Source: a virus (lineage: Duplodnaviria > Caudoviricetes). Taken from it: a stretch of DNA of 64,000 bases. Location: the IMG/VR virus record IMGVR_UViG_3300028048_000092, positions 32,001 to 96,000 of that record. The stretch is one strand, 5' to 3'. A program made the translations under genes and the position numbers. The notes beneath the pieces are model-generated. The model did not search any database. It had not been told where the DNA came from and saw only the letters and a list, made by a program, of their open reading frames with translations. Below, piece after piece: positions 12,282 through 64,000 of the stretch. How positions within the stretch are numbered: position 1 is the stretch's first letter; each line of letters begins with the position of its first letter.

Positions 12282-12758
12282 TCAGATTACTGTATAGAAC
12301 ATCAATCCCTGACTGAGCTATGTGAGTTTGTTCTAAGTCTCTTCTTTAGTATAATAGTTGCTTAGAGATATGGAAAATGAGTTTGACAGCTATGCCAGTT
12401 TTTCATCTACCTAAATCTTTGTATAGTAGTCAGAAAACTTTTCTTTGATACTACTTAAAGAGTTAGATATCTCACTTATAATATCGTTTATCTGTTCTAT
12501 AGTATAATAGTCTTGAAAACGACTCTGTAATTCAGACAGAGAGTTTGAGATATCTGCCAGAAACTGATCTATTTCATTTTTTGTATAATAGTTGCTGAGA
12601 TCTGTCTGGGGAGGGATCTCTACTACGTTACCGTTGGGCAGCTTTGCTTTCTGCTTTATTGCGCCGTTCTCTATTGTTTTATAAACAAGAACTGTTCCCT
12701 GCAATATATTCGAGTTAGCAAAAGAGCTGTCGGATTCTATTTTCTATACTCTGGCCAT
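12282..12758 (-). CDS. tail-fibre-like YYTK repeat protein (TAG=Glu)
   Basis: ATG 12758 to TGA, 158 aa, five in-frame TAG; four YYT-x-x-E/Q repeats. Confidence 0.8.
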
Positions 12759-12842
12759 TTTTAAGTCCTTATCTAGTTCATATAAGGGTACTTGGTAAAG
12801 TGTATAAAGACCTTGTAAAAGAGCTAAAAAACAGGCCCTTTT

Positions 12843-12855
12843 TTGGCATAATAAG
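12843..12855 (+). promoter_or_regulatory. TTGGCATAATAAG extended -10-like motif (also at 14725-14737)
   Basis: Identical 13-mer upstream of two transcription units. Confidence 0.45.
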
Positions 12856-12946
12856 TTGAAGGAGATTACAAGGTTGTAATCTTAAAAATTTAATCCTTCC
12901 TGGACAACTGTCCAGTTTCTTTAATGCCATAATAAAGGAAGTTAAA

Positions 12947-16666: not shown

Positions 16667-19600
16667 ATGGCTGACAGCAGCTTCTGGAATATAGGAAATA
16701 TAGAATATCCTGTAATACAAGGACAAGCGGGAAAGCCCTTCTACCATTAGCAAGGTCCTCTCATACAGTTCGGGTAGTAGCTGGTCGATAACAGCTGCCT
16801 TTGCAAGTACAGATATGCAAGGTACTTTGCTTACTACTGTGCAGTTCCTTCAGACAGCTCTTCCATAGCCTTTTTCAAGAACTTCGAGCAGGTTCCCTGG
16901 GAAGGGGGGCATAATATAAAGTTCCTTGATTATACCCAGGAAACAGCCAAAGGTTACCAATGGGGAATGTTCAAAGGACCTGTATATCTGGGCTGCTATC
17001 CAACGGGTCACTTTACTACAGGGAAGTGGCTTCCGGTGGAGCTTCCCTATGAGAATGTTTCATAGGACCTTAATGTAACTTCTCCTTCTCCTTATTATAT
17101 ATATTAGGAAAATGAGGACTACAACTACTCCTTGAAGTGCATGATAGTAAGTTCCTATTAGTGCTGCAATGGGGAGGAGGGCTGTGGAGTAGAAGTACAG
17201 AGAGGCTAGTACTTTGAAAGCTCTTTCCCATTCTGCTATGCATAGTTCTTTGTAAGTAACCTTGATGCAAGCGATGCTTCTCAGGTAACAGCTGCTCTTA
17301 TAGAAGGCTCCCAGGGATGTGTATGCACTCCTCCTTACAGGATGCTTAAGAAGTTCTAGCAGTACGATTGCTCTACAGCTACTATAAGGGTATTCAAGTA
17401 GATGGTGCTTCTTCCAGAAGAACTCGACAGATGCTCTTAGTTCTGTCCCTCCTGCCAATAGGAGCTTCCTGCTTTAGCTCCCAATGCTGCTTTTTTAGCT
17501 AAGAAGGATTGTGTTTATTGGGTTTTATGGAAGTTCCCCCTTCCATAGGACTGCAGTGATTGTTCCAAGACTTTACATAAGATATAGTGGCAGTTGGTAA
17601 CGGATTATAAAGATATCCCCGGGGAAGTTGTAGGGAAGGGGCCTGGGTGGAAGCCCCTGAGTTTCCATGATCCTGACGAGACCTTTACATACTGTGAATA
17701 GGAAGCTCCTGGAAAAGTCATCTTCCAGTGGCAGTATGTAAGGAATCCTCAGCCTTCCCAGGGAGAGATATAGGGCAGCCGCCCCGCTGTAAAGCCCGAT
17801 GAAAACCCCTGCAAAGAATACTGCAGGAAGAACCCTCTGGCAAGGCCCTCCATATCAGACTCTTTGTCAGGTGCCTCCGACAGTACTTTGTAGAAGCACT
17901 TTCCCTGCAATGAGCCCTAGCCTCCTCCTATGAAGTACAGAGAGTTCCTCCATACTGAGTTTGATGTATATGAGCTGTCACTTCGAGTTACTGTCATTAC
18001 AAGAGATCAGGTGAAGGAGTGCTATCAGAGCTATAAGATAGATACTCCCTTATAGGACTGGCATTGGAATCTTATTTAGAATGCTGTCTATGATTATCAG
18101 CTTACAAGCTACTTATATGGTACTTCCTTTCGGGGGACTGAAGTAAAGAACGGCTTTATCCATAAGTATGTTGTGCAGTTACATGGAGAAGAGCCTCCTG
18201 AAGATCCTTCCGGGGAGTATCAGGGAGACGACTTCGACATAGTAGCTGATGGAAGCTCCTACAACTTTGTCGATAAAAGTCAGAACCTTTGTCAGTATGC
18301 TTATCAAGTTTATTTAGCAGAGAAGTGTAAATGCTTTGGTGATTGTATTTCAGACTCCCGTTCCTGCAGCACATCAAATCAGAGTGAATATATAAGTGGC
18401 TGGGGGTGCTCCAAATGGCAAAGTCTTGGTCAGCATTCTTAGTATTAGATAAGAAAGGAAATGCGGTTCTGCCTGGATAAGTGGAGCCGGAACCCGGAAG
18501 AGTCTGTACACAAGTAGTGGGTTTATACTACTTTGTCTGATGATCCTTATTTCTGTGAATAGTATCCCCAGCCACTTAAAAGGGGGATTATCTACGATAA
18601 CTATGTATTTACACCAAACTGTTCCGATTCTACAAGTATAGTGGTATCTTTCCCTTTTGTTTCTTATCCCTGGTGTGGAAAACAGCCAAAAGCTTATTAG
18701 GGATATAAGGCATAGGACAGCCTATCCAGCTCCACTTTACTTCAAGTAGTGGACAATGTAATAGATCTTACCAATACAGATCCTCCGATATGTACCGTAT
18801 ATGGATTTATTGATCCTCACAAGGTGGCGGTTTGGCCAGGGTTTATTTCAGAGCGGCCTGTGCGACCAGCGCCTTGCTGCGGAGAAGAGGCCTTCTATTC
18901 CGATAGCTGTCATGCTAAGGGCAAAATTTATTAGCCTCCCATTATAAAGTGGCCCAAGTCCTGTTTGTAGCTTCCAGCGTACGGAGTGAGAGTTTATATA
19001 GCTGCTTTTGGACATGCCTGGCCTGGGTTCATTTCCACGTAGAAGACCGTTGATTCCCAGACTAAGTACTATGTAAATGCTTCCAAGTTCCTGCAGTACT
19101 TCAACTGTACCAAGCAGTCTTAGCTGTAGTTCTATTAGGAGCTCCCATCGTAGTACCCTGAAGGATGGGATCCGCCTTTCTCAGGCTTCTATCAGACCGA
19201 TTATCTTCCTGCAAAGGGTAACTGGTGCATGCCTCCCATAGGCTTCTTCAACTAGCTGTCCCCTGTGAACTTCAACCAGGGCTCTATAGCTTAGTGGGCA
19301 GGAGGTTCGGGAAAAGTCCTTTTGTATATATTCTCCGGGCATGCTTCCCGCTGCTAGTCACAGTTAGAGGTCGGCATAAGAGCACTTGCAGGGAAGAACA
19401 TCGGCGGCAGAAAAGCTATAGGCGTCTAGATCCCCCTTAACAAGAAAGGGGCAGGAGATAACGGGACCATAGCATATTCTTATGATTGTGTTGATGTCAA
19501 TCAGTTTATAGATCCCAATAGTGAGTACTATCATAAAGGTGTCTTATAGAGAGCCTATGAGAATCAGGATATAACAGGGTTCGTTGCCAATGGGTTTGTA

Positions 19601-20833
19601 GATGGTATAGATGCTTAGCTCTGCAATCGTATAGGAGGAAGCTTCCCCGGAGGAGCCTGCAGCAATGTGGAAAAGTTCCTGAATGAGTAGGAACTTCGTT
19701 AGCTGTTTGGTTCTGCTGCTGCAGGAAACTGGAACTCTCATTTCTTCACTTATGCTGATTTGAACTATCCGAAGAGTCCTTTCGGAAAAGCTTGCGCAGA
19801 CAGTTATATAGGTGTCTCCGGGAGGACTGGGGGCAAAAACGCATCTTCACATGATGTTGCGCTGCTGATGCGGATGCAAAAACTGCCCAAGGCAGCTTCC
19901 AGGACAGCCTGGTATATCCAGAACTGCTATGTGACCTTTTATGACTAGGATGATGGATCTGAGATCCTTCCCGGCTGGCCCTACAGGGTGTATGATCAAG
20001 CTGTTGACTTTGGCTATTCTTTTTGTGTGGAAGGCTCTCCTTCCCAGATAACTTATCTTATAAATACGACAGAGAGCTTTACACCCTCTGATTAGGATGT
20101 ATTTGCCGCGCTTATTAATGGCTCAAGAACTACATTCCACATATAGATACCTCCTTATCTGGCAGGAGAAGGGCTCTCTCCAACGGATCTTACTAGAAGT
20201 ACTTTTCAGCTTGTATCTGTAAGGGACAGCAGGAAGTGGCTGAGCATTTCTGCTTCCACTTGGGATGGACGTTGCTATTTGGATGCTTACGGCGGGCTGC
20301 AGGTTACTACTGCAGATAACGGAAGCACTACTTGGAATTGTGAAACGCAGACATGTTATTGGGGATAGCAAACTACAGGAGATTGTGTTATTCCCACATT
20401 GGATATACTGCCCCACGGGGATTGCGATACAGAAACAGGTACCGTAGGCAGAAGCGGCTTTGGCAGATACCGCAGCCTGCTTAAAAATGCTTCTGACTCC
20501 GGTTATGCTCTAGTAAATACTTCCAGTATGCGTTTCTGTGATCTTCCTTAGGGGGTTTTTGCTGCGTTTCTTATAAGAGCCTTAGACAATTGGTACGACT
20601 TTCCAAGCAGCTATGCAAGGGTCTGTGATCAGAATTATTATAGAGCATCCAAAGATTGTATAGTCATACCTGTTCCCGCTAATCTTGAGGAGGGCGACTA
20701 GTATACTCTCAGTATAACTCATGATCTTTCAGATAGCACCACTTATGAATAGGAAGGAGATACTAGTTATCGTAAGTGCCATGTATAGATATAGCAGAAG
20801 TTCATTTTCCACTTGCCGACATAGTGGTACTGA
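16667..20833 (+). CDS. 1388-aa Cys-rich protein, probably virion surface/tail (TAG=Glu)
   Basis: Single frame without TAA/TGA over 4167 nt; dozens of TAG; ORF-track pieces 18173, 18749 and 19760 share this frame. Confidence 0.8.
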
Positions 20834-28600: not shown

Positions 28601-29512
28601 ATGAACATAACAGATTCTAATTTAGTTCCCGTTACAGCGCAGCCTAAGGCTGGGCAGCGTGTTATATAGATAGCTCCTGGAAAATGGATCCCTGTGGGCC
28701 TTGGAGGAAAGTTCCCTCCCGTTGCTGCTTCTTCCGACAGCACACTTTTGGCACTCGAAGCAGGGTACATCGATGAGAATGGCAACTTCCAGCCGCTCTC
28801 CTTTAATGGTACTTAGGCAAGCGACTCCGGGAATGCTGTAGAGGGACTATAGCACAAGATCTTCAATACAGGACATGAAGAGCCTGATTATGGTGGCTCT
28901 GGTGGTTCTGGTATTCAATTGCCTAGCGATGCTTGTTTCTATCTGCCTCTTTCTACTGATGTGACAACACAAACCGGACAAGCAACAACAGCGACTGGTA
29001 TAACTTTTAACACTTAGGCAGGTATTACTGCTGCTGTGTTTGATGGCGAAGGGTATATAAGCTTCTCTGACTCAGGCTTACCTGAAGATACTTCAGCTAG
29101 ATCCTTTTCGTTTTGGTTCAAAAGAACCTCTTCTATTGACGATAATGTTGTTATTAATTACGGTGTGGATGCTATTAGAAAGCGCTTTGGTATTTTTTTA
29201 GCCGATACAGGACTCACCGTAGGTATAGGTGGTGGTTACAGTGTAAGTATTACACATGCTTTTGCTGCTAATAGGTGGTACAACATAGTTGTAATATATG
29301 CTGATGGTTTTATTAATTTGTGTGTTGATGGTGGATAGATTCGCAGTGTGGAGGCGCCTTATTTTTCCACGGAACTGACAGGAACAGGTTACATAGGTTA
29401 TCGCAATGGAACCACGTTAAACGGAATGCTGGCAGGTGTCAGAGTATTTAATCGGGCACTTACGGCTGCAGATATATACGCTTTAGCTCGTGAATTTGTT
29501 CCCACCGCTTGA
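28601..29512 (+). CDS. LamG/concanavalin A-like tail protein (TAG=Glu)
   Basis: FDG..YI, SFSFWFK, WYNIVV, VRVFNRALT..DI..LAREF. Confidence 0.85.
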
Positions 29513-29527
29513 TAAAGGATCCTTCAT

Positions 29528-29878
29528 ATGAACTTAACAGAATCTAATTTAATTACTTTAAATACAGAGCTTAAACAAGGTCAGCGCTGTATCCGCATAG
29601 GTAACAGCATAATTCCTGTTGGAGTAGGTGGAAGCTTTGCTCCGGGCAGTGACTCCACTATTCCATAGGCAGCCGATGTCATCCTCGGTGTAGTGGATGC
29701 CCAGGGAAAGTTCCAGCCCTTCAAGTTTAATGGTACAGAAGCCTCCGATTCAGGATAGCCTATTACAGTCTCTTAGTACAAGAGCTGGAACAGCACTTTG
29801 CCTGCGCCCACACCAAGCCCTTCCGGCGGCATGGACGATCTTTAGTTCTTTGATTGGTATACAATTTTATCTAAATAA
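29528..29878 (+). CDS. small tail protein paralogous to the 28601 N-terminus (TAG=Glu)
   Basis: MNLTESNL...GQR...PVGVGG...FQP..FNGTEASDSG. Confidence 0.75.
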
Positions 29879-29890
29879 GGAGTTTTGAAA

Positions 29891-30187
29891 ATGGATGTTA
29901 AAAGATTTGATGTTGTAACGAACGCGAGTGACTCCGCTTCTATCTGCACTGTTCCTTCCGGGAAAGCTTACACAGTGACAGGATTTACTATTGTGGAAAC
30001 TGAAGGCAACTCAGGGGAAATTACACTGAAAGTAGGAAACCAGATCATCGGGCAGTTCGGAGTGTCCGGACCAGATACTATTTATCCTGTCACCAATGTT
30101 AATTTGACTGCTTCTTAGACACTTAAAGTAGATTGCTCTATATCTGGTGTTTATGTCACCGCTTCTGTTGTGGAAAGGGATGTGTAA
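29891..30187 (+). CDS. small beta-rich structural protein (TAG=Glu)
   Basis: TVPSGK.YTV ... LTASETLKV; one TAG. Confidence 0.7.
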
Positions 30188-30474
30188 TGAGCGGGACACT
30201 GGGAGCGATTCGCCGGGAACGGCAAAGAAGGGAAGAAGTTCTCCGCAAGGCTCAGGCGGAAGCCGATAAGCGGCAGTCTCTTGAGCTGAACCGCGAGGCT
30301 GTCATTGCGGAGATTTGCGAGGCTTTCGGCTGGACGGAACTGGATGAGTTCGCCCGGAAGATGATCGATGACGCTTTCGCCGGGCAGCTGGTAGACGTGA
30401 AGCAACTAAAAAAAGACCTTGCCAAGTGGAAAGAAGAACAGGAGCATCCGCAGGAGTCTCCGAAGGAGGAATAA
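30187..30474 (+). CDS. hypothetical helical protein
   Basis: TAATG overlap; GC-richer; no TAG. Confidence 0.65.
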   Translation: MSGTLGAIRRERQRREEVLRKAQAEADKRQSLELNREAVIAEICEAFGWTELDEFARKMIDDAFAGQLVDVKQLKKDLAKWKEEQEHPQESPKEE

Positions 30475-30475
30475 C

Positions 30476-31894
30476 ATGCCACTGTATCATCACCAGGTTA
30501 GCACTTCTGATGTATATGTACCAACAGGGAAAACCATGCCTACAGGGGCAGTGTTCTATGCGCCGTTATCGTCTGCGTCTGCGACGGCAGCGACCGGGCA
30601 GACGTTAACGGCAAAAGGGACTGCTACATATCAGAATCAACAAGGCATCAACTGCGTTTATTTTAATGGAAGTTCTTCATATATTTACATCCCTGAAGCC
30701 CTTGCCGATACCTTTCCTGGGTTAAGTTCCAAAGATACCTTAGCTTATTGTTGCTGGTTCAACACAAAAAATAAAAATGCCGGCCAGGAGATAATCTCTT
30801 GTACAGAGGGTGGGGGGTTTAGTATTGGATTAAATTCGGACGGCAATTCGGGTTATATGCATATTTATGTGATGGCAGGTGGTTCATATTTAAATGAGAA
30901 TATTTGTCCCATTTCCAAGGTAAAACAGGATCAGTGGATGTTTATATGCGTTAATTATAACGGAAGCACTGTTGATGTATATTTAGATAACGAGAAGGTA
31001 AATTCTTTTAATAAAACTGGGAATCTTGGCATGCCGAACAACGCTCCTTTGGCGATAGGAGCAGAAAGCGCGGATCTATCTACGACGTTTTCTTCTGATT
31101 GTTTCAATGGTTATATATCTTCCGTGCGCGTCTACGACCGTGCCTTAACCCAATCGGAAATTACCACTCTATCGCAAGAGTTTGCCCTTGCCGTGGAGAC
31201 TTCCGGCTTCGATGAGCTCGGCCATCCGGTGCAATATGATTCTGCCTTTGATGCTGGGTGTTCACTTTCTTACAGCTGGGTAGACGAGAATACAATATTA
31301 TATATTCCTATGTATGGTAATTCTCCTTTTACCGATAAAAGTCAGAATCAATATTCAGTAACGAACAATGGTGTAACTGCTGTGACTAATGTCGCACCTC
31401 CTTCAGGAGGAACAGGGGCTGGATACTTAAATTCAACAAACCACTATCTATATACAGGAATTAATATCCTCAACGGTCTGACTACTTTTACGCTTGAGTT
31501 TGATTTCAGGCTGACACAAATCCCCAGCGGGGGAAATGACTGGGACGACGGCTATTACTTCGCTGCCAACGGGAATAATTACGACAATCCAGGATGCGAC
31601 ATGTATTTTGGAACCTCTCAGATTGTTCTTAATTTTGACAACTATAATAATCGGGTTGGAACTTCTTATACACCCGATACGAATTGGCACAACCTTAAGA
31701 TAACACGAGATTCATCTAATCTGGTATCCGTTTACATAGACGGCGTATTAATAAACAGCTATACCCGTTCCAATAGTTTTTACTCTGGTTCGTATGGCTT
31801 CGCGATCGGCAGAGTAGAGCCGCAGGGAGAAACCGGAGGTGCTGGTTTCCATGGGTATATAGCAAACTACCGAATTTCTAATATTGTGAGGTAA
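30476..31894 (+). CDS. double LamG-domain receptor-binding/tail protein
   Basis: YFNGSSSYI, VRVYDRALTQSEI, FHGYIANYRISN; no TAG. Confidence 0.85.
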   Translation: MPLYHHQVSTSDVYVPTGKTMPTGAVFYAPLSSASATAATGQTLTAKGTATYQNQQGINCVYFNGSSSYIYIPEALADTFPGLSSKDTLAYCCWFNTKNKNAGQEIISCTEGGGFSIGLNSDGNSGYMHIYVMAGGSYLNENICPISKVKQDQWMFICVNYNGSTVDVYLDNEKVNSFNKTGNLGMPNNAPLAIGAESADLSTTFSSDCFNGYISSVRVYDRALTQSEITTLSQEFALAVETSGFDELGHPVQYDSAFDAGCSLSYSWVDENTILYIPMYGNSPFTDKSQNQYSVTNNGVTAVTNVAPPSGGTGAGYLNSTNHYLYTGINILNGLTTFTLEFDFRLTQIPSGGNDWDDGYYFAANGNNYDNPGCDMYFGTSQIVLNFDNYNNRVGTSYTPDTNWHNLKITRDSSNLVSVYIDGVLINSYTRSNSFYSGSYGFAIGRVEPQGETGGAGFHGYIANYRISNIVR

Positions 31895-31899
31895 ATATC

Positions 31900-33114
31900 A
31901 TGATATATCACCACCAATACAGCAACAAAGAAGTTTCGGCTGTTCCAACTACATTTACATCCAATACTTCTATTTCAGGATATGTATGTTCGGCAAGTAA
32001 TACTAATAGCAGCAATTACCCATGGAAGATATGGAAGCAGGACTACACTACATCCGAGTGGGCATGGTGGCCAGGGAATGTGAGTTTACCACAGTGGGTA
32101 CAAATTGAAGTTCCAGAAGCATTCGTTCCGACATCATTCATGGTCATGAATGAAATAGCAACTCCAGCGTCAATGAAAGCAGGGATATTTCAGGGATCAA
32201 ATAACGGTTCAAACTGGACTGACTTATATACGATCTCTGATTGGCCAGCTGATGCTGGATATAGGAACACAATGGAACTCTCTACCAATAATGCTTACAA
32301 GTATTACAGGTTGTACGTTACAGATGGATGGGTATCAGGTGATGCTGTATCAATCCAGGCCATGAAGATATTCAAGAGGGATATGCACCCTTCTTCCGGC
32401 TTCAACAACTGGGGTAAACCTGTCAAGTATCGCTCAGCTAAACTGGCTAAGTGCAACTGGAACCCGATACCGCAGGAAGGACTGGTCTTCTATGCATCAT
32501 TGGCTGAGGATTCCGCTACAGCTGAAACAGGGCAGACCTTCACAAAGAACAGTAAGGGGAACGGCATATCCTTCCAAACCTACAAGAATGTTCCTTGCGT
32601 TAGATTGCAAGATGGCAGCAACATGAAGGTAACTGCCATGACGGATATTCCAACTGGCAATAATCCTTTTACTATTTCCGCGTGGCACAATCTATTGATT
32701 CGCCCTGATGATGATTATGGTGTAGCTGGTTTCGGCTATGGAACGGATGGTGAACGTAGTCTTGTAATAACATGGTTTTCCGCTGCATATGAAGGACCAG
32801 AGAATAATATCGCAATTAATATTCGTGTCTCAAGCGGACTGGGCACCGGGGCAAAATATGTCCTTGGCAACTGGTATCATGTAGCATGTACTTTCGATGG
32901 GACAACATTCAAGACTTATGCTAACGGCGTTTTTGGAGACTCTGGAACAAGAACACTTAGTATGGGGAATACCGCTATATACATAGGAGCTCTCAATAAT
33001 AACCAAACAAATCCCTGGCGCGGTTATCTTGCTGGATGCCGCATCTATAATCGTGCATTAGACGAAAGCGAGATAGCCAAGCTCGCCAATGAGTTCCATC
33101 CTACCAATGACTGA
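31900..33114 (+). CDS. F5/8 type C (discoidin) plus LamG tail protein
   Basis: PQWVQIE, FQGSNNGSNWTDL, AYKYYRLYV; WYHVACTFDG, RIYNRALDESEI; no TAG. Confidence 0.85.
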   Translation: MIYHHQYSNKEVSAVPTTFTSNTSISGYVCSASNTNSSNYPWKIWKQDYTTSEWAWWPGNVSLPQWVQIEVPEAFVPTSFMVMNEIATPASMKAGIFQGSNNGSNWTDLYTISDWPADAGYRNTMELSTNNAYKYYRLYVTDGWVSGDAVSIQAMKIFKRDMHPSSGFNNWGKPVKYRSAKLAKCNWNPIPQEGLVFYASLAEDSATAETGQTFTKNSKGNGISFQTYKNVPCVRLQDGSNMKVTAMTDIPTGNNPFTISAWHNLLIRPDDDYGVAGFGYGTDGERSLVITWFSAAYEGPENNIAINIRVSSGLGTGAKYVLGNWYHVACTFDGTTFKTYANGVFGDSGTRTLSMGNTAIYIGALNNNQTNPWRGYLAGCRIYNRALDESEIAKLANEFHPTND

Positions 33115-33124
33115 GGCACTTTAA

Positions 33125-33505
33125 ATGTACATCAAAGACTCTCCTAAGCTATAGAAACTTCTGAAGAAGTGCCAGCTTACAGAATTTGGACGCTGGTTGA
33201 GGTGCTTTGACTGGAGCTCCATAAGGCTCTTTAAAGTCCCTTTTAAAAAATAGGGGCTTTTCACAGCCTGCTACATAGCTCCTCTCAATTGCATCCTTGC
33301 AGCTCCCGACTAGGATGGCAGAGTCTTTTTCAGTACTATATGCCATTAGCTGTATCATGCTTATCAGAAGCGTGTGAACGGAATGTTCAAATATTTGATA
33401 CTAAAGACCTTTAGAAGAAATAAATTATAGCTACCCGCTTAGGCAGCTTAGTTGAGTGCTGCTTAGTGGGCCTGCCAGCAACCCAGATAGGAGTTTGATA
33501 TATGA
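33125..33505 (+). CDS. small zincin-type metallopeptidase (TAG=Glu)
   Basis: ICH[TAG]LYHAYQ = HExxH and downstream L[TAG]LPA = E-x-x-A third ligand. Confidence 0.75.
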
Positions 33506-34434
33506 GTAACTATTCTGATTCTAATTTGATAAGCATCCCTGCTGCGAGTGTCCCTGCAGGCACTTTGGCAATGAAGGTTGGCAATAATATCTTTACTGCG
33601 GGGAATGTAGTCATAAGCGGCTCTTCCATGGACTTCTACAAGTGCTCTTATGTAAACTCCAATAGCTGGGGAGGGTATAAGGCAGTACAGGACCCAGACA
33701 CGAAAATATACAGTTTTGAAAGTAACTCTACTGCGGGGTTATTATATGATCAATCAAGCCCAGAAGTAGGAGGAATTTATTCTCAAGACGCTTTAATCTA
33801 GGTAGCTAGGATGTGGAAGGGTATTCCTCAAACAGGTCTGGTTTTTTATGCCCCGTTAACTACAAACTCTGCCACCGCAGAGACAGGGCAGTCACTTTCG
33901 TATAAGAATTGCACTTTTACAACATATAAGGGAATATCAGCTGTACGGATGTCGTATGCATGTATTACTACTGGTATACTTGCTCAAAGCGGATTGGACT
34001 CTGGCTTTACGCTTTCGATGTGGTTCTGTGATGATAGTTTCAGTAATAACTCAATTATTGCGCACATTGGAGATTGGGGTGGTGAGTCAGGTTACTGGTG
34101 TGGTCTCCAGTCCAATAATTATAAGCCTCAGTTATATTATCAGGAAGGAGTTGGAGCAGGAAGCAATAATAGTCTACAGAACAATACCTGGTATCATGTG
34201 GCATATGAGCAATATAATGGTACAGCTAAAGCGTGGATAAATGGAGTTGAAGATCTTAATACGTCAACTGCTACGACGCAATGTTCCGGACTTCCTTTGT
34301 ACATTGGAGATATTGACGGCTATTCTTCTCAATATCCATTTCAGGGATATTTAGCTGCAGTTAGACTTTATAACCGCGCTCTGACCACAGTAGAAATCGC
34401 CGCCCTCGCCTCCTAGTTCACCCCTACAGCCTGA
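33502..34434 (+). CDS. LamG tail protein (TAG=Glu)
   Basis: GLVFYAPL, FTLSMWF, WYHVA, VRLYNRALT..EI..LAS[TAG]FTPTA. Confidence 0.85.
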
Positions 34435-34486: not shown

Positions 34487-35212
34487 ATGACTGACATTAT
34501 TATTCCCTTAAGCAAAGAGTCTCCGGATAATAATCTGGAGCTTCGTGTGGCCCTGCGCTCCATCGAGCGCTATGCAAAGAACCTCGGACAGATACACATC
34601 TATTCTGCCCTTCCAGTTCCCTTCCTCGAGGATGTGGATGTGGTTATCATGGGGGATCCCTGTCCTAACTGCAAGGATGTGAACCTTATCAATAAAGTAA
34701 AAGCCGCTGCGTAGAACCCTAATGTAGCCGACCGCTTCATGTTCTGGAGCGACGACCAGCTCTTAACTTCAGAGCTGGACCTTGATAAAGCCCCTGTAGT
34801 AGCCAATGAAAGAGGGCTTGATTGGTTCCTTCAGAACAAGGGAAACAATAAGTGGTATTTCCGCATGCTCAATACTATGGAGTATGTGAAGAAGGAAACT
34901 GGTCTGAAGCTTGATTGGAACTACGACAGCCATGTTCCGCAGCCTTATCAGAAAGATGCTGTATTGGATGTTTTCAGCAGGGTGCCTTATGAGACTCTTC
35001 CGGGATTCTGCATCAATACTATTTATTATGGTATGCTCAGACAGCCCTATACCAAGCAGCAGAGGGAAGTGAAGGTGAACTTTGAAGGAAGAAGCGTTAC
35101 TATTCCTACTTCCATGAAGCTTTATGCAGGGCATGATCCTCAGTGCTGGAACATGGGCGCCAAGCTGTTCTTTATCGGGATGTTCTATGAGAAGAGCAGG
35201 TGGGAAGTATGA
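34487..35212 (+). CDS. Stealth-like sugar-phosphate/glycosyltransferase (TAG=Glu)
   Basis: ELRVALRSIERY, F+FWSDD, NYDSHVP. Confidence 0.7.
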
Positions 35213-42339: not shown

Positions 42340-44211
42340 TTGGATAAAAGATATACAAATACACTGGCCAACCCCTTCAGCACCAGGTCTGCCAAGTTCT
42401 TCCCCAAGACCATCAAAGAGTGCTTTCAGTGGGCCTAGTATATGCACGACCGCTTTCCCGTGATCGGCAGAGCCATCAACAAAGTGGTCCGTTATTTTGC
42501 TGCTGATATTTCTGTAACTGCTTAGGGCTCACCATCTTAGGTAGATACATAGTTCCTTAAGAAGACCTAGGATCTGCTAAAAGACAACTACGGACTTCTC
42601 TAGTTCCTTATCAAAGCCGGTTAGGAACTCGCCTCCATGGGGAATGTTTTTATCTATGCAGTCCCTGTTATTCATCGCTCGCTGGCCTGTCCGAAGTGTA
42701 AAACTGTAATGTCCCTTAATAAAATGTTTCCCAAGACAGATTATACTTGGGATGGAGAATTCAAGGGGACCTGCAAATGCGGCTACAAAGGGAAGTATCA
42801 GGTAATTGACAAGCAGGTAGCAGATAAGAAGGGACGCAAGATCCACTTCAAATGCATCTCTCCCTATGACATGCTGCTGAAGTATAATGAACTTACAGGG
42901 AACTACACATATCTTTATAAGATGCCCGCCCACATGAAACAGGCCATTATAGAAGGCGATCCAGTATATCTTAACGATACTCCAATGGTGTTCCTCAAGG
43001 GAGCCTTCCAGGGCGATTATATCCAGTTCCCCACAGATAGATTCATGCATGCCCGTATAGATTCCCTCACTTCCATGGACCGTTACTACAAGGGCTGGGG
43101 AACTCCTATGTTCCTTAACACCTTTAACGATATTCTAAGATTGGCTTATCTGGATAAGTTCAATGAGGCCGTTGCTACCGACTTTATTGCTCCTGTAAGA
43201 ATGATAAGTCCTCCTCCGCAGAATCTTATGGCTGGTAATGATACTCTCAGGCAGAATCCCATCAGTGGCTATCAGGTAAAGCAGTTTATCTTTTAGGCAA
43301 TTAAAGGTGTGCGCTAGAATGCTTCCCAGTGGGTAGTCTCTCCCTTCCCGCTTAATTATCAGATGCTTGGTGGGGAGGCGAAACAGCTTGCTCCTGTAGA
43401 GCTGATGAAATGGTATGAAGAGCGTATCTATGAAATGATGTCCATTCCAATGGAACTCCGCCAGACTTCCTTCCAGGCAGTAGCTCCTTCGGCAGGACTT
43501 AGAATGTTCTAGCGGCAGTGGATACATTATACCAATATTCTATAGGACATGCTTCTTTGGATGTCTGACATTATCTGTTCTTCCCATCTCATTGAAAAAG
43601 TGAATGTAGTACTCGATAAGACCTCCTTCGTCGAAGACGATATGCACAAACAGACAGTACTTCAAATGGCAGGCAGCGGCATGATCTCCAATGATACTGT
43701 TCTGAAGACCATTGGGCTGGATCAGAAGGAAGAACAGAAGAAGATCCTCCAGGAACAGCAGGACATGGCGGAAGAGTCCATGAAGACCCAGAATGCACAG
43801 CAGGAAATGGAAATGACAGGCTCCGTGCTGCCTCCTCCGGGAAGTGTCGGTGTGGGAGCTGCTCAGTACAATATGGAAATGGTACAGCAGCAGAACATGC
43901 CTCAAGATCCTGCAGCAGCCGGTCAGCCTGCACCTCCAGGAGCACCTGCTGGAGCTGGAATGCCTCCGATGCCTTCCGGCTTGTAGAATAGCAGAAGCGC
44001 TGGTGTGGAGCAGCTCTTCCAGCAGGCGCAGCAGACAGCTTAGGAGATCTTCAATGTGGGCATTACTCAGGGGCCTGGTGCAAGACGCTCCATGCTGGTG
44101 AAGCTGAAAGCCCAGAACCCGGATCTCCATGCTCAGGTTACAGCTATCCTGAAGCAGCGTGATCAGGATACCGCTTCTCAGGCAGTAGCACAGTCCAAGA
44201 TGCCACAGTGA
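42340..44211 (+). CDS. putative portal protein (TAG=Glu)
   Basis: TTG start after GGAGG; P.TIKECFQWAEY, AINKVVRYF, MGNVF, GWGTPM, LNYQMLGGEAKQL; Q/P-rich tail; function inferred. Confidence 0.6.
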
Positions 44212-55686: not shown

Positions 55687-58600
55687 ATGCCCACTATGTC
55701 TCCTAATAAGGTTGTATAGAAGAATGCCCAGGACTGGGTACGCGATTTAAGATTCTCCAATCAAGTCAATATGCAGACTATGGGAGTGGACACCGACCGT
55801 GTAACTCCATAGCTCCTTTTAGCTTCCAGCAATAAACTTCTCGGTATCTCCAGAGGAACTACTTAGGGAGACATGAAGGACTCCCTTCAGTTCCAGCGCT
55901 TTTACGGACCTGTAGAGTACTTTGCTGAAAGGATCCAGAAAGATGGCGGCAGCGTAGCCAGAAGTATGCTCTGGAAAGCAACTAACAGAGGCAACTTGGA
56001 CTTTATCGGTTCAGGTTCTCTGCAGCCGCATGTAAATGCAGTGTTCCATGAAAGTAATCTTTCCCAGTTCGTAGACAATACAACTCCTTTGGATGGGATA
56101 GACAACTCCCAGAAAGTAACCCGCATAGGCGAGGGCGGACTCAGCGATGAAGATTCCGCGCCTATCGAGATGCGTCTTGTGCAGCCCTCTTATTATGGTT
56201 ATGTAGATCCGGTAAGGTGCTACGATGATAAAACAGAGATCTATACTAAAAAGGGCTGGAAATCAGTAACCGAAATGTCCCTGGAAGATGAGTTTGCTGT
56301 ACTTATTGATGGTAAACCTGCATGGAGCAAACCCATCTCTCTTCAGAACTTCGATCATGACGGTCTGATGTACTGCTTTGAGAATTGCTATATCAACTTC
56401 TCTGTAACTCAGGGTCACCGTATGTATGTCTCTAAGGAAAAAGGCGGTGAGTATGGTATAGAATTTATTGATAGTCTCTTTGGAAACTCCAAGTATGTGC
56501 TTTGCGGTGCTAAGAAAGCCTCTGTTGTAGATGAAAAACAGAAATGGTTCTATCTGCCCAAAGTTGATCAGGTGGGAACTGTAAAGAACATAGACAAGCT
56601 GGATATAGTTGATTTTGCAAGATTCATGGGCTGGTATCTCAGTGAAGGTTCCTGTGATCTTTCCCACTCCGGTTCAGGCTCCATTGATTACAGAGTCCGT
56701 ATCACCCAGTCCCCTGTTCTTCATCCGTAGAACTACGAGGAAATAAGAGACCTTGTAGAGAAGCTTCCTTTCGGCGCCCATCCGAAGCATTACTGGGAAG
56801 CCAACAGCTCCGATATAACCATCAAGAGAAAGCAGCTCTATTACTATCTGGAACAGTTCGGAGGTTCTCTTGACAAGTTTATTCCTGATTGGATCTTTAC
56901 AGCTCCCACAGAAGCCAGATGGGCCTTTGTAGATGCTATTTTAAAAGGCGACGGCAGCAACCAGAGAGATCTTAATACTATTTCCAAGAGACTTGCAGAG
57001 GATTTTGCCAGACTTATGTTCGAGTTGGGGCAATCTGTAAGAATAATCTCTTCCCAGCAGACTTATATCGGAGTCAATGGAAAGCAGGCAGGTCTTATTT
57101 ATCAGATTACCTGGCACAAGCGCTATGAACATAAGCTGGAAGCCAGAAAGAGAAAAGACCGCAACAGCGGCAAAGGTTACTACACAGAATACTATAGAGG
57201 CAAGGTCTATTGCCCGACAGTCCCTGGCGGCCTTGTATATGTAAGAAGAAAGAACTCCAAAGGTTTCTGGTGCGGGAACACCGCGTAGAAGAGCCCCGGT
57301 ATTACAGGTTACCTTACCAAGAATGTAATGAAAGGTACCGATGGCAAACTTTATCAGAAGTTCATCAATATGCACACAGGGCAGACCTAGATGCTGGATG
57401 CCCAGACAGCCGCCAAGAAGATCATCACCACCAATGAGTATCTGGACTCTAAGGATGATTATGTCTATGCAATTGGAGGACCGAGAGGTCTGAGAGTGGT
57501 AAAGCGCAGCGACGTTGATTATATCCTGCCGAATGCGGATGATGCTTTCTCTGCAAACGCTAATGCGGTTCCCATGCTGTCAGGTATCAAAGCTATGCGG
57601 CTTCTCATGGGATGCCACCATCCGGAAACTCCTATAGCTGTTATCGACAAGCATGGTTATACCCATATAGTCCCTGCCAAGAGAGTGGGGCACATGGGAC
57701 CTGTATATGTCTTCGGCTGCGATGAAAAGGGTATCGATCAGGTATATCCTGTAAGAAAAGTCGTTACCAGAGTGCCTGCCAAGAAGAGCAAGTTCAAGAA
57801 AGTCATTCTTGGTTCCGGCAGAGTGCTGCTAACTTCTGCTGAACATAAATGGTGGACTTATCAGGAAGGCTTCAAGCTTCTGCAGGCAAAGGACCTTAAG
57901 GAAGGCATGCTGGTTCCCAGAAGCCTCTTTACTTCTATGCCCGTGAGACTCACTGAAATAATGGGAGTCCCTGTTACAAGAGAGATCTGTGTCTTTATGG
58001 GACGCCTGATAAGAAGCCTTAAAGCCACCAGCTACAGTTATCGAGTCACTTATGTGAAAGACAGAGACAGAGGTATCGACCAGAAAGTAGATATCCTCAC
58101 AGCTTTGGAGCAGCTCGGCATAAAGAATTATAATGTATTCAGTGCCAGAGGGCTTCATGCAGTATCCATAAAGGATCCTGTTTTCCAGGATTGGGTGGAT
58201 CAGAATATAGGTGAGCTCCCAGAAGACAGACGCATTCCAAGCGCCATTCTTTCTCTGCCGGAAGGATATACCAGTATCTTCCTGGATTCTTATTATAAAG
58301 ATCTTGAAACTGTTGGTGAAGATGATCAGGGAGATACCTGGCTTCTCAGCATCGCCAATCCTGCCTTGAGAGACTCTCTGAGTTTTATGCTCAATAAGAT
58401 CTATACAGACACAAAATATAGAGACGTTACCAAGAAGGATTATATCCACAGGGCCCTGCAGCTGTTCCCTGCAAGCACTTCGCTGGGAGATATCGTATTG
58501 GAGAAGATAACTAAGATCCTTGATGTCCAGGCTCCTCCGGTAATGATCGATATAGACTGCGACGATCATGTATATGCTGCTGCCAATGGTATTATTACAC

Positions 58601-61600
58601 ATAACAGTAAGTATGTAAGTCAGGCAGTTCCTTTACAGTAGCGGGAAGCTCCCCTTGTGAGAAATCTGGATGCTGCCACAGGTATGGATATGGATACCAA
58701 GCTGGGCAAGCTTCTTGGTACACAGTGGGCTCCGAAGGCCGGTATGGTAAAGGCTGTTAGAGAAGATCGTATAGATATGCTCTATGATGACGGTACTACA
58801 GGAAGTGTTCCTCTTTATAAGAACTTCCCGGCCAACGCTAAAGGGTGGCTGACCAATTATCCCAAGGTAAAAGCAGGAGATAAAGTTGCTTAGGGGCAGC
58901 TTCTGGCTACATCCAATTATACGGATGATAATGGAGTGCTTGCTATGGGAAGAAACCTCAGGATGGCTTATATGAGCTATCATGGAGGTACCTATGAAGA
59001 TGCTACTACTATTTCCGAGTCTGCTGCCAAGAAGCTTGGTTATACTACCATGTACAAGACAGACATGGATAAGGATAAGAATATAAGAACCGCCAAGCAT
59101 CTTTATACTACATGGAAGCCCGGACAGTACTCAAAAGAGCAGCTCTAGAATCTGGATGATCAGGGAGTTGTAAAAGTCGGGGCTACTCTGCATAAGGGAG
59201 ATCCTGTGATTCTTGGCATACGCACTACAGAGCCCTCTCCGGGGACACTTGGCAAAAGGATCCTTTCCGATGTTACTTAGGTGTGGTAGCACGCCAACCC
59301 AGGGATAGTTACAGATGTCGTAAACGGAAAGAACGGTATCAAGGTCTTCGCCACAGTAAGCAGTCCTCTCAGAGAAGGAGATAAGCTGACACAGCTCTAT
59401 GGCGGGAAAGCAACTATCGCACAAATTATTCCTGATGAAAAGATGCCCAGAGATGCTAAGGGAAGGCCGTTAGATCTTTTGTTCGATCCTCTAGGAATTG
59501 TAAGTCGCTGTTACGATGTGTAGACGGAATTTCTTACTAGATAGGGATGGAAACTGGGTAAGGATGTAAAGGGTTCCGATGAGCTCCTTAGTTGGGATCT
59601 CAAAGCAGAAGGCTTCTCTTATCTGCCACAATAGTAGTCTTTCTATAAAAAGGAATATAAAGGCACCATGTATAAGGCCTCTAATAAGGAGGTTTAGCTG
59701 CAGGTGACACCTAAACATAGAGTGGCCTATAAATGGCCCGGCTAGGATACAGTCAGATAGGGCTTTATAGAGGATATCTGCGGAAAGAGCTGCTATCTCC
59801 CCAAGAGAGAACTTATTAACGGTAAAGAAGAAACCAGTTGGCAGCTTATCAGAAGTACTGACTGGTCTTAGGTAGATTATGAAGGCACTGTTTATTGTCC
59901 TACAGTAAGTACTGGATATGTTCTTACCAGAAGGAACGGCAAGTAGATAGTAGCACATAACACCAATCCTTCCCAAATGATGTAGGCAGGGCTTGGCAAA
60001 GTTGCTATGAAGACAGGCACTCCTATTGTAGTTCCTGCTTTTATGCCCAAAGGACAGTCCAGGTTAAAGTATGTAAAAGATCTGATGAAGGCGAATAATG
60101 TTCCCTGGAAAGAGGATGTCTATGATCCCGATACTGGAAGGACCATTAAGAATGTCTTCACAGGTGTAATGTATTTCCTTCCCTTAAAGCACATTGCAGA
60201 TACTAAAATGTCTGCAAGAGGAACTGCACAGTACACCGCTTAGCAGGTTCCCATGGGAGGCGGATAGTAGGGCTGCTTCCCAGCGATGCAAAATATTATA
60301 ACCTTGCATGGGGAACAGAGTATTGCACATATTTGTGAGAAGAAGATTCCTGAATATGTGATGTCTTGGGACTAGGAACGTAAAGAATGGCGCTGGAAGC
60401 AGATCACTGACTGGTTCACTTACAGATCTAAAGTATAGAATATCCTCAATATCTTTACAGAGAACTCTCTCAGTACTTATGGTGGTAGGAATAAAGTAAA
60501 GCATACCAACTCTTCTTATCCCACTAAGAACCATAAGATGTATATGGCGGATGGTTCTATAAAGCTTGCAGGAGAGCTTAAAGTAGGGGACTACTTGGCT
60601 GGTATTGGTTGCCAGTATACCGAGGATCAGCTGCAGGCTCTTTATGGTACTCTTATGGGAGACTCCAGTAGAGACTCACAGGGTGGTATCCAGTGTATGC
60701 ATTCTGTAAAGCAGTCTGCTTATATCAATTACAAGAGAGATATCTTTGCGGCTGTTGGTGCCAGTAGAGTAAGTGACCCCAAAGAAGTTAAGGGCGGTGT
60801 AATGGGCAGAGATGGGGTTTGGAAGGAGTATAAGCCTACAGCTGCTATCCGTATGCAGGTTCCTAAGAGCTATTATGTATAGAAAGCCCTTTAGCTTACT
60901 ACAGATAGTGCAGGAAAGAGACATCTCACTGCTCCTGTGTTGGAAGCAATGGGAGAGTTTGGGTTCTGTTTGTGGTTCCTGGATGATGGTAGTATAACCA
61001 ATCAAAGAAAGCCTACACATCACATAGATCAGCCATAGGCTAGAATAGCTACACACAGCTTCTCTGTAGAGGAAGTAGAAGAAGCTGCTAAATGGTTATA
61101 GAAGAATCTACTTCATGTAGAAAATGGTACTCATATAACTATCTATAAAGGAGTATATGATCAGGATCAGCCTTGTTTGAATTTCCATAGGAACGCTAGT
61201 TGGTAGATTGCAAGAATAATTGCTAAGCACATTCCTTGGGAAGTTATTCCTGATTCTAAGACATGGTTGAAGCAGTACTGTAAAGGGGTCCAGGAAAAGA
61301 CTCCCTGTGTAAAACACAACTTTAGGAGTCCTCTTGGTATAGTGCCATTGAAGATCAAAGAGATCAAGCCCTATAAGCACGACAAGCCAAATGTGACTGA
61401 AGTCAATGTCTATGATTTTACTGTGGAAGACACTCATAATTATACACTTACAGGCGGTGTAAGAGTGTCTAATTCGAAGCGCATTGGCAATTTAGAGGTC
61501 AGTGGTCTTGCAGGCCACAACGCTTTCAACTTCCTCCACGATGCCAAGCTTATAAGAGGACAGGCCAACAGTGACTTCTGGCGCTCCATAAGAACAGGCC

Positions 61601-64000
61601 AGATCCCTACAGTCCCCGGAGAACCTCTTGCCCATAAGAAGTTCTTTGCACACCTTCAAGGCTCCGGTATGCAGATAAAGAGAGACAATTAGGGCTTCAC
61701 CATCTTTGCTCTCTCCAATAAGGATGTAAATGAACTCGCAGGCTCCAGGTAGCTTAAATCCACAGATACTTACTAGCAGAAGAACTTCCGCCCCATAGCA
61801 GGGGGACTTTTCGGCTAGGACATCTTCGGTCCTTAGGGAGATAAATGGGCTTACATACAGCTCGACAGTCCTCTGCCGAACCCTGTGATGGAGGAGCCTC
61901 TTGCAAGACTTCTCGGAGTCTCCGATACTTAGTTCTAGCAGATAGTCCGTGGAAAAGGCACTCAGAAGGGACTTCGCAATGCTTCCGATATGAAGAAGGT
62001 TCTCTCCAAGATGGACCTCTAGAGGGAAGCTACCCGTGCCCTCATGGACTTTAAGACCAGTACCAAGTCCCGTAAAGACAAGGCTCTGAAGAAGTATGTA
62101 GCTATAGCAAGGATGAGAGACGCCGGGGTACGCCCATAGGAGTACATGCTCGACAGGATCCCGGTGCTTCCTCCAAAGTTCCGCCCGATAACCTCCCATG
62201 GAGGTCTTACCATGGTGGCTGACAGCAACTATCTCTATTCCCAGCTTCTTAATGCAAGGGACGATTTGAGGGCTGCAAAGGATCTCCCTTAGGAGTACCA
62301 GGAAGAAGGGCAGTCAAATCTCTACCAGAAGTGGAAAGAGCTGGTAGGGCTGTACGATCCAAGCGATGTGAAGTTGAAGGCCAAGAATGTAAAGGGGCTG
62401 CTGAAGTGGGCGCTTGGGAAGAGTCCCAAGTATAGCGGATTTATGCAAAAGGTCCTTGGGAGCACAGTGGATACGGTTGGAAGGGGAGTAGTTATTCCCA
62501 GTACCAAGATAAAGTTGAATGAGATCGGGATGCCTGTATAGATGGCATGGCATTTATATTCGCCATTTGTAGTAAGGAAGCTGGTACAGCAGGGATACAC
62601 TCCAGTGGATGCTATGAAGCAGGTCAAAGAGAAGCGCCCAGTGGCGGAGGAAGCTCTTTCTGAGGCTATTAAGGAAAGACCTGTGGTTATGAACAGAGCG
62701 CCATCTCTGCACAAGCTGTCTCTTATGGGGTTCAATGTGAAGCTCACTAACGGGCACGCTCTGAAGGTAAATCCTTCAATAGTAAGTCCTTACGGAATGG
62801 ACTTCGACGGGGATAGCATTAAATCGTTGATTTCCATAGACTTACGACGTGAAAATCTGCCAAATATAGCAAAATGGCAAAACAATGTCGATTAGAATTC
62901 GGACTTGACAAATAAAAAAGATGGATATAGATTGTTTATGAAAGAGGAAAAAGGTACCTCGAGTAATAACAAGTAGAGAAAGGAACAATCTATGTTCAGC
63001 AAAAACACCAAAATGGAACTTGTACAGACTGTAATGGAACTCTCTGAGCTCCCTGTTGTAGAAGGGTCTGAAGTCAAGAAATCTGAAACAGTAACTGAGT
63101 GGGATGTAAAGGAAGGGACCTATACTAGTACCATTGATCCGGTCACTGGAGACATCGTCTATGCACCTATTACTAAGGTCTCCAAGCATGAAAATTTGAA
63201 GATGTTTGATATCAAGCTCGCTATCAGCTCCTCCTATGACCACATGGTCACAGCCTCTGAAGACCACAGCCTGATTACCCTTAATCCTATGACACTGGAG
63301 CTGGAGAAGACTCGCCCGGAAGACTCTAAAGGGCGCTGCGTTCCTATGACCAGACATAACAAGGGCAACTCTGCTAGAGAAAATGGACAAGGCATTTGCA
63401 CTGAGCTGCACTTTCCCTCCGGTACTTATCAAATGTCCTACGAAATGGGACTTTTCCTAGGTCTTATGGTAGGAGATGGATGGGTATCCCGTCTCGAAAC
63501 CTCTCCCATAATTCAAGTTGCTTGCTGCGAACCTTCTTTGCAAGAAAGAATAAAAGAGCTGTCCAAGAGTGCTAATATGCCCTTTACCAAGGAAGCTTCC
63601 TTCGGTAGCTATGAAGCAGATGAACAGAGATTCTCCAAGGATAATATGCAGCGACTTACCTTCTTTATGGATCAAGACGACAAGCGCTATATAAATGATC
63701 TCATTGGACACGGTGCTGAGAATAAGAGAATCCCGTATCCCAGTTTTATGTCCAGCAGGACACACATGCTAGGCGTGCTCATGGGATTACTGGCCACAGA
63801 CGGTGTAGTTTCTCACAGGCCTCCAACTAAGGGTAAAAAATCTCCCTGCAAGAGTATTGCCTATCATACTGTCAGTCCTGTTCTTAGAGATGGGGTACAG
63901 GAACTTGCTCATAGACTCGGAGTAAAAACTTCTGTCACTAATTATATAGGTACAACATCTGGTAATTTGACCTATATGGTTAACTTCTGTCTTGAGGATA
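55687..64000 (+). CDS. rpoBC: fused RNA polymerase beta(C-terminal)-beta' polyprotein with five inteins; runs off the window (TAG=Glu)
   Basis: One frame; GEGGLS, YYGYVDPVR|TAE, RLLMG|SKYVSQAVPL, TYEDA..ISES, GDKL, DPLGIVSR|TNPSQ, G|SKRIGNLEV, GGLFG.DIFGP, IPVLPPKFRP, NRAPSLHK, MDFDGD. Confidence 0.92.
56218..57279 (+). mobile_element. intein 1 with LAGLIDADG endonuclease
   Basis: CYDDKTEIYT...VTQGH...FMGWYLSEG...AILKGDG...WCGN|T. Confidence 0.9.
57613..58605 (+). mobile_element. intein 2 (degenerate endonuclease)
   Basis: CHHPETPI...TSAEHKW...NGIITHN|S. Confidence 0.9.
59509..59961 (+). mobile_element. intein 3 (mini-intein, no endonuclease)
   Basis: CYDV.TEFLT..GWK...VTPKH...VYCPTV...VAHN|T; 151 aa. 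Confidence 0.9.
60274..61473 (+). mobile_element. intein 4 with LAGLIDADG-type endonuclease
   Basis: CFPAMQNIIT...PTKNH...GTLMGDS...WFLDDGS...VYDFTVEDTHNY...VSN|S. Confidence 0.9.
62815..64000 (+). mobile_element. intein 5 immediately after the catalytic DFDGD (partial)
   Basis: Ser start, VTASEDHSL block B, LGLMVGDG and LMGLLATDG LAGLIDADG motifs. Confidence 0.85.
62905..62933 (+). promoter_or_regulatory. sigma70-type promoter inside intein 5
   Basis: TTGACA-17 nt-TAGATT, then AAGGA RBS and in-frame ATG at 62992. Confidence 0.7.

Follow-up and report, generated by a model that had tools for sequence, protein, structure and literature searches.

We analyzed a stretch of DNA of 64,000 nucleotides (hereafter the window), which comprises bases 32001-96000 of a 106,679-bp IMG/VR virus record (IMGVR_UViG_3300028048_000092). 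In the late genes of the phage from which it derives (the window phage), the amber codon TAG most probably encodes glutamate (Glu; we place the probability at about 0.88), with TAA and TGA serving as terminators. That TAG stands for Glu and not for glutamine (Gln) had been proposed from the window alone, and this original prediction is supported by homolog columns, a per-site sign test, codon exchange between relatives, paralogs and amino acid composition. On this reading TAG supplies about a third of the late-gene Glu positions here, and more in the relatives.

A broader picture, to which we give somewhat less than even odds, is that a clade of rumen/gut phages of roughly 180-190 kb with a fused RpoB-RpoC polymerase uses TAG as Glu, a code undescribed for a virus or prokaryote. 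It would be installed by a self-contained module, consisting of a compact, anticodon-tolerant glutamyl-tRNA synthetase (GluRS) and an intron-split amber suppressor tRNA, whose splicing could time the switch from the early to the late code.

The contig has no terminal repeat, its completeness was estimated by CheckV at 57%, and its last open reading frame (ORF) runs off the end and has no continuation at the contig start. Separate studies of the bovine gut have yielded near-identical contigs, from DNA as well as RNA libraries. Judged by its gene content, the source is a large tailed phage of an anaerobe: the contig encodes a fused RpoB-RpoC polymerase with inteins, an anaerobic ribonucleotide reductase and its activase, NAMPT, a NUDIX protein and a sigma-70 factor.

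Distribution of in-frame TAG codons

Translation of the region beyond 12.3 kb with table 11 gave short ORFs only, and the polymerase gene fell into many pieces. When TAG was read as a sense codon, long co-oriented late genes were obtained, including those for proteins of 1388 amino acids (51 TAG) and 740 amino acids (27 TAG) and for the 3030-amino-acid polymerase (47 TAG). TAG accounted for 341 of the 16,792 codons of the late plus-strand genes, all of which were terminated by TAA or TGA; the abundance of in-frame TAG past 12.3 kb, and the use of TAA and TGA as gene ends, had thus been described correctly. The recoded block extends beyond the window to the end of the contig.

In the early plus-strand genes TAG was found in frame only 3 times in 10,723 codons, versus 182 and 117 times in the other two frames. 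Being nearly TAG-free, these genes should be readable by unmodified host machinery. The restriction of in-frame TAG to late genes, together with conserved genes that are full-length only with TAG as a sense codon, is the pattern that defines amber recoding. Since ORFs close at TAA or TGA, and TAA terminates approximately half of the genes, TAA is not read as Glu, as it would be in NCBI code 30.

Several plus-strand genes within the recoded block are TAG-free, namely those at 30419-33114 (two Laminin_G_3 paralogs), 49053-49796 (conserved, 247 amino acids) and 62992-64000 (an intein endonuclease ORF). They may have been acquired recently or be expressed early.

We considered whether the TAG codons might not be translated as written, being assembly or sequencing errors, targets of UAG-to-GAG editing, or stops in decaying genes. 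No point in support of this was found, apart from the compatibility of low-level editing with the contig data. Two RNA-library runs of another study yielded contigs without a single difference from the window over pieces of 1.6-4.9 kb containing many TAG codons, and the same codons were present in contigs of a DNA run; the replacement of TAG by GAG that the original prediction had named as a possible refutation was therefore not seen in independent data. As rare variants may be lost from contigs and DNA may be carried over into RNA libraries, these results exclude only a wholesale replacement of TAG by GAG. The codons are, moreover, retained in dozens of relatives that come from other samples, absent in frame from the early genes in which they are common out of frame, and too numerous (341 stops across essential virion and polymerase genes) to be the result of decay. 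We regard the probability of this explanation as negligible.

In both RNA-library runs (depth 297 and 39) we also observed contigs that join position 16705 to 20053, skipping 3347 bases. Because the shorter side of this joint measures only 21 letters, these contigs may stem from an unrelated molecule that has two short words in common with the window.

Identity of the residue at TAG positions

The only reassignment of TAG reported for phages is to Gln (NCBI table 15, as in the crAss-like, Lak and phAss-1 phages), and the pipelines from which the sequences of the relatives were obtained translated them in this way. If it applied here, the Glu signal described below would reflect a recent origin of TAG from GAG. 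The following comparisons bear on the choice between the two residues.

The fused RpoB-RpoC polymerase was the main source of homolog columns. A database search with this protein revealed 120 homologs, which formed two groups, 26 closest sequences and 94 others. Column profiles were built from the 94 standard-code homologs only, with the 26 closest left out; 14 sequences sampled from the 94 had an ordinary composition, and two members (P0017 and P0031) translate by table 11. The 47 TAG columns contained Glu 34.3%, Asp 15.8%, Lys 7.9%, Ala 6.1%, Ser 6.0% and Gln 6.0%. This profile closely resembles that of the true-Glu columns (Glu 37.1, Asp 15.5, Lys 6.1, Ala 5.6 and Gln 5.4%) and not that of the true-Gln columns (Gln 27.3, Arg 10.5 and Glu 8.8%).

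Nine TAG columns of the polymerase were conserved at ≥80%; the conserved residue was Glu in six of them (81-100%; residues 568, 1198, 1433, 2022, 2030 and 2982), and Lys, Gln and Asn in one each. TAG thus occupies conserved Glu positions, and it can itself be conserved within the clade, as column 1433 is TAG in 26 of the 26 recoded relatives. Residue 534, also encoded by TAG, corresponds to the Glu in T-P-E-G, a motif that is universal in beta subunits.

The comparison was extended to the whole genome by aligning all ORFs with those of two complete standard-code relatives (G002 and G004) and of several standard-code loci. The TAG columns of the window phage (8 genes, 629 aligned cells) contained Glu 29.7%, Asp 16.9% and Gln 7.3%, and in terms of log-likelihood Glu ranked first, with Asp 207 and Gln 249 units behind. 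G001, a complete relative of 192 kb with TAG recoding from about 20 to 128 kb and a polymerase 57% identical to that of the window phage, gave Glu 34.8, Asp 15.1 and Gln 4.8% (40 genes, 2383 cells), equal to its own true-Glu profile, and two further relatives (L004 and L005) gave Glu 35-41% and Gln 4-6%. The fit to true Glu and not to true Gln therefore holds for the window phage and three relatives. Overall, the share of Gln was 6-7% in the TAG columns of the window phage (Glu 30-34%) versus 27-32% in true-Gln columns, so that the columns are not dominated by Gln as code 15 would require.

For the per-site sign test we used 87 TAG sites with ≥3 standard-code homologs, 57 of which lie in the window. 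Glu exceeded Gln at 56 sites and Gln exceeded Glu at 13 (p = 1.7e-7); the corresponding ratios were 158:39 for true-Glu sites and 42:124 for true-Gln sites.

Paralog alignments inside the contig placed TAG opposite Glu 8 times and opposite Gln once. The 18 coordinates on which the original prediction was built proved exact in both codon and peptide context: TAG is present at 23239, 23266, 23404, 28814, 34414, 33347, 35305, 37780, 37789, 57286, 59983 and 61816, and GAA or GAG at the paralogous positions 24850, 24877, 25024, 29738, 33091 and 29492. The identical 69-bp duplication that it had described was located at 23170 and 24781. The H-[TAG]-L-Y-H sequence at 33347 fits the zincin motif HExxH only if TAG is Glu, and in a conserved late gene (42340..44211) with standard-code orthologs (44% identity in G002) the TAG columns contain mostly Asp and Glu.

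Codon usage changes in the same direction. Per 1000 codons, early genes contain 83 for Glu and late genes 42, plus 20 TAG, while those for Gln remain steady at 34-37. Furthermore, TAG codons of the relatives face GAG 46 times, GAA 41 times and CAG 11 times in the window phage, an excess of GAR (87) over CAG (11) such as synonymous use of TAG and GAR should produce.

In each of the 26 closest polymerase homologs (55-81% identity), Gln occupies 29-58% of the columns that are TAG in the window phage. These sequences look falsely rich in Gln (5-8.6%) and poor in Glu (1.2-4.1%), a composition that they would actually have to possess if TAG encoded Gln. Two contigs of this group were checked, and they match the database protein only when TAG is translated as Gln. 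The surplus Gln is therefore an artefact, as these positions are TAG codons in genomes that the pipelines assume to use code 15. In the polymerase tree the 26 recoded sequences and the window phage form one clade (support 1.0), a grouping that the TAG=Gln translations could inflate.

A candidate decoding module in a recoded relative

Adjoining its first large recoded gene, G001 carries a TAG-free gene for a 356-amino-acid protein that matched tRNA-synt_1c (PF00749) with an E value of 2e-41. Among the NCBIfam models, bacterial gltX was the best match (203 bits), followed by GluQRS (110 bits) and GlnRS (24-33 bits), indicating that the relative encodes a GluRS and not a GlnRS, which also speaks against TAG=Gln. 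The score lies below the cut-off of the full-length gltX model TIGR00464 (290 bits). The protein is approximately 110-125 amino acids shorter than cellular GluRS, its match to Anticodon_2 is weak and partial, and it has a shorter acceptor-side insertion and a shorter helical anticodon-binding region.

The predicted fold (predicted local distance difference test score of 90.8) gave template-modelling scores, on the protein's own length, of 0.80-0.84 against bacterial GluRS, including non-discriminating enzymes, and 0.5 against GluQRS. The protein has the class I catalytic domain and the predicted fold of a GluRS. The compact family comprises proteins of 354-385 amino acids, and the IH-x-G (HIGH-type) and KPLSKRD motifs are invariant in 11 members.

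The compact GluRS gene was absent from seven standard-code relatives, and three further contigs with a short GluRS were all TAG-recoded. In two GluRS-bearing contigs (L086 and L089) the region examined contained no standard-code homologs from which TAG columns could be derived. A metagenome scan with the GluRS profile yielded one near-identical short contig and otherwise cellular GluRS, and in a scan of viral contigs only G001 exceeded 37% identity.

The second component is a putative tRNA(CUA) gene of G001 that is interrupted in its anticodon loop by a group I intron. The 5′ half ends with ...GCGGACUCU, the intron spans approximately 252 nucleotides, and the 3′ half starts with AAAUCCGC...; the joined exons (76 nucleotides) fold into a cloverleaf with the anticodon loop CUCUAAA and the anticodon CUA. 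The intron contains a group I core recognized by Rfam (31 bits, E value 3.5e-7) and adjoins a tRNA(CAU) gene. In its P1 helix CUCU pairs with GGAG, with a U.G pair at the splice site. This gene was the sole clean match in the scan for split tRNAs, and an exact search for the 3′ exon of the suppressor detected it in G001 only.

The tRNA has U11-A24 and U13.G22, which we take to resemble the D-helix determinants of Escherichia coli tRNA-Glu. It also has G1-C72, and the bacterial amidotransferase GatCAB presumably uses U1-A72; by known identity rules, Glu attached to this tRNA should not be converted to Gln. The contig of the window phage breaks off at a gene whose G001 ortholog lies approximately 14 kb upstream of this locus, and the tRNA would thus fall in the unassembled part of that phage.

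Taken from G001, the following sequence of events can be proposed. The early genes, in which the near-absence of TAG was demonstrated above, would be translated with the host code. The amber-reading tRNA (anticodon CUA) would mature by self-splicing of its group I intron and be charged with Glu by the compact GluRS. Once both components are made, the TAG-containing late genes would become translatable, with TAG read as Glu. By analogy, the presence of such a mechanism in the window phage is plausible.

Judged from intron and intein sequences, the genomes of the window phage and G001 are unusually rich in self-splicing elements. In G001, group I introns were matched at 12 places, in addition to the polymerase inteins. 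In the contig of the window phage, one such match (L002:14906-15138, +) separates the two parts of nrdD, the gene for the anaerobic ribonucleotide reductase.

Among the rejected candidates, a split-tRNA match in G004 was found to be coding sequence, and the tRNA(CAU) genes found in G001 and L088 resemble those for tRNA-Ile2 or tRNA-Met, not suppressors. An odd tRNA-like gene upstream of the window (L002:11975-12057 in contig coordinates, +), missed by ARAGORN, scored 36 bits with Rfam. Its D arm is almost missing and its variable arm is long; the anticodon loop is CUUAUAC (anticodon UAU, reading AUA), the T arm is canonical and CCA is encoded; the relatives carry instead a tRNA(CAU) of the tRNA-Ile2 type. 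In the window, the early gene 11322-11942 (+) encodes the HAD domain of the "Swiss Army Knife" RNA-repair proteins (PF18143, 2e-19), and its product may act in tRNA repair.

Points against the glutamate reading and remaining alternatives

Several observations weigh against the assignment of Glu or against the proposed machinery. The residue at TAG is deduced from conservation. When TAG codons of the window phage were compared with the recoded relatives, they faced TAG 50 times, GAA/GAG 17 times and CAA/CAG 16 times, which is the weakest part of the case; we attribute the 17:16 split to variable sites, because both genomes have TAG at the majority of conserved Glu sites. In addition, TAG residue 2044 of the polymerase is Gln in 97% of the standard-code homologs, and the recoded relatives have Lys at this position.

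As regards the machinery, the original prediction had proposed a search of the rest of the genome for a tRNA with a CUA anticodon, a GluRS and release-factor genes, and none of them is present in this contig. No tRNA(CUA) was detected in it by ARAGORN, by the Rfam tRNA model (E value up to 10) or by three custom scans (for CUA anticodon arms, for a T arm plus acceptor, and for split tRNAs). ARAGORN runs that used relaxed thresholds, allowed for introns or were set to mitochondrial mode returned nothing but poor false positives. Neither a GluRS-type gene nor a release-factor domain was found in the 57%-complete contig. The mechanism is accordingly taken over from G001, in which the polymerase shares only 57% identity with that of the window phage. 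The Glu identity of the G001 tRNA is argued from U11-A24 and U13.G22 only, and its C2-G71 pair and variable loop of six nucleotides are unlike those of E. coli tRNA-Glu. Similarity gives no identity for this tRNA, the nearest annotated phage tRNAs being tRNA-Asn and unnamed suppressors, and both the splicing of the intron and the charging by the phage GluRS are predictions. No cytidine-deaminase domain was found.

Column 2044 and the 16 CAG/CAA codons facing TAG are what one would expect to see if TAG encoded Gln. Set against the 249-unit deficit in log-likelihood, the composition that would be imposed on the relatives and the GluRS of G001, they leave Gln a very unlikely residue.

Another possibility is that TAG is ambiguous, being read mostly as Glu with a share of Gln or other residues, through the action of several synthetases or through partial amidation. 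Conservation analysis is compatible with a minority residue, CUA suppressors of E. coli (supE and Su7-type) are often mischarged with Gln, and no synthetase was seen in the contig of the window phage. The proportion of Gln in the TAG columns (6-7%), however, is not above that in true-Glu columns (5-8%), and by known identity rules the G1-C72 pair of the G001 tRNA speaks against amidation by GatCAB. We consider ambiguous decoding unlikely, though a little less so than a complete reassignment to Gln, and retain Glu as the meaning of TAG.

Comparison with known recoding systems

In the literature searched, TAG recoding in phages is to Gln throughout, and we found no report of TAG as Glu in a phage, which is consistent with the suggestion that this may be an undescribed phage code. 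Borges et al. (10.1101/2021.08.26.457843) state that TAG to Gln and TGA to Trp were the sole reassignments in their data, and in the phAss-1 paper and a 2026 survey of jumbo phages Gln was assigned by default.

The window phage resembles the code-15 gut phages (crAss-like, Lak, Agate, Garnet and phAss-1; 10.1101/2021.08.26.457843, PMC10607447, PMC9523058) in its animal gut habitat, in the confinement of in-frame TAG to late, structural and lytic genes, in its TAG-free early genes and in the absence of TAG as a terminator; a suppressor tRNA(CUA) is encoded by some of those phages as well, and matching synthetases by a minority. It differs from them in the residue, which is most probably Glu and not Gln, and in having a relative with a compact GluRS and a suppressor apparently split by a group I intron. 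A suppressor divided in this manner is missed by standard tRNA finders. Only 35-40% of the known late-gene amber-recoded phages have a suppressor tRNA(CUA), and some of those reported to lack one may hide an intron-split form.

The nuclear code of peritrich ciliates (NCBI table 30) also has TAG as Glu. In that eukaryotic code, which governs all genes, TAA too means Glu and TGA is the sole stop, whereas in the window phage TAA is a stop, only late genes are recoded and the host is presumed to use the standard code.

With respect to the synthetase, TrpRS in the TGA-recoded Jade phages (Borges et al.) and GluRS in huge phages (PMC7162821) are similar in that a class I synthetase encoded by a phage matches the reassigned residue in a recoded genome, and in neither report is a link drawn between GluRS and TAG decoding. 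Cellular GluRS has 411-490 amino acids, versus 354-385 in the compact phage form, which in this lineage was found only in TAG-recoded contigs.

Group I introns occur in the anticodon loops of the cyanobacterial/plastid tRNA-Leu(UAA) and of bacterial tRNA-fMet. The predicted G001 intron shares with them self-splicing, its position inside the anticodon loop and the U.G pair at the 5′ splice site. The interrupted gene of G001, unlike theirs, is a phage amber suppressor, so that splicing would be a precondition for the change of code.

As the phage record has so far comprised TAG to Gln and TGA to Trp (or Gly), Glu would add a natural code variant, and the reassigned amino acid cannot be deduced from coding density alone. 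Protein sets derived from IMG/VR, ENA and Logan use TAG as Gln for these phages and would therefore contain a wrong residue at 2-5% of the positions of late proteins, catalytic glutamates included, which distorts composition, alignments, trees, structure predictions and metaproteomic peptide searches. The compact GluRS and tRNA(CUA) are also a candidate orthogonal pair for genetic-code engineering.

Features of the window and other elements

The features discussed in this report are listed in Table 1.

Table 1. Location of features in the window and in related sequences (window coordinates unless another source is given).
Feature	Location	Strand	Description
Early block	1..12281	+	Without in-frame TAG; gene ends TAA or TGA; sigma-70 factor, patatin-like protein, RNA-repair HAD-domain protein
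Recoded late block	12282..64000		In-frame TAG in most genes; all ends TAA or TGA
First large late gene	16667..20833	+	1388 amino acids, 51 TAG
Two paralogous tail-fibre-like genes	23128-24663 and 24736-26649	+	TAG versus GAA just past the 69-bp identical stretch
Laminin_G_3 paralog family	28601..34434	+	TAG versus GAA/GAG at 28814/29738 and 34414/33091/29492
Small gene	33125..33505	+	126 amino acids, 9 TAG; H-[TAG]-L-Y-H at 33347; no match in Pfam
S-adenosylmethionine methyltransferase (Methyltransf_24)	35200..35766	+	L-[TAG]-I-G-S where motif I has an acidic residue
Conserved late gene	42340..44211	+	623 amino acids, 13 TAG
Fused RpoB-RpoC polymerase with inteins	55687..64000, past window end	+	3030 amino acids, 47 TAG (44 within the window)
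Compact GluRS gene (predicted)	G001:19635-20705	minus	356 amino acids, TAG-free, adjoins first large recoded gene
Intron-split tRNA(CUA) (predicted)	G001:90924-90601	minus	Group I intron in anticodon loop
Four retron-like hairpin RNAs	contig 12121-12323, 21278-21429, 27198-27422, 40598-40762		L002/L003 and window 8600-8760

Few of the late proteins have recognizable relatives. A homolog search of the protein database with the 1388-amino-acid product retrieved its own record only, and a representative search with the 740-amino-acid product gave 9 weak matches. Comparison of nine late proteins with PHROGs gave two weak matches, both to families of unknown function. A pattern search of viral contigs with a single protein revealed no relative, and the first ORF of the contig had no match in the other assemblies in which it was looked up.

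The four hairpin RNAs are long, stable and intergenic (-62 to -93 kcal/mol) and have a common TAAGA(C/A)TC motif; when checked as candidate tRNAs, they proved not to be tRNAs.

An element of 82 nucleotides at 14291-14372 (+), just upstream of the recoded block, has tmRNA-like ends (acceptor stem with G3.U70, encoded CCA and T arm) without a tag-coding part. Its match to alpha_tmRNA is weak (20 bits; E value 0.06 in the window and 2e-5 in the genome search), and it was not found in G001, G002 or G004.

A 74-nucleotide element at 12794-12867 (+), shared with G001, was rejected as a tRNA. It contains a promoter-like motif (AGCTAAAAA...TTTTTGGCATAATAA, then AAGGAG) that is present again at G001:14508-14554 and G001:121340-121413 and is a candidate phage promoter.

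Finally, a conserved motif of approximately 30 nucleotides (GUCCUGAGCAAGACGUUAAA...) at 13410-13470 (+) is common to G001:14936-14966 and to a Pistol ribozyme called in L089 (66.8 bits). This motif is probably a pistol-type self-cleaving ribozyme located at the early/late boundary.

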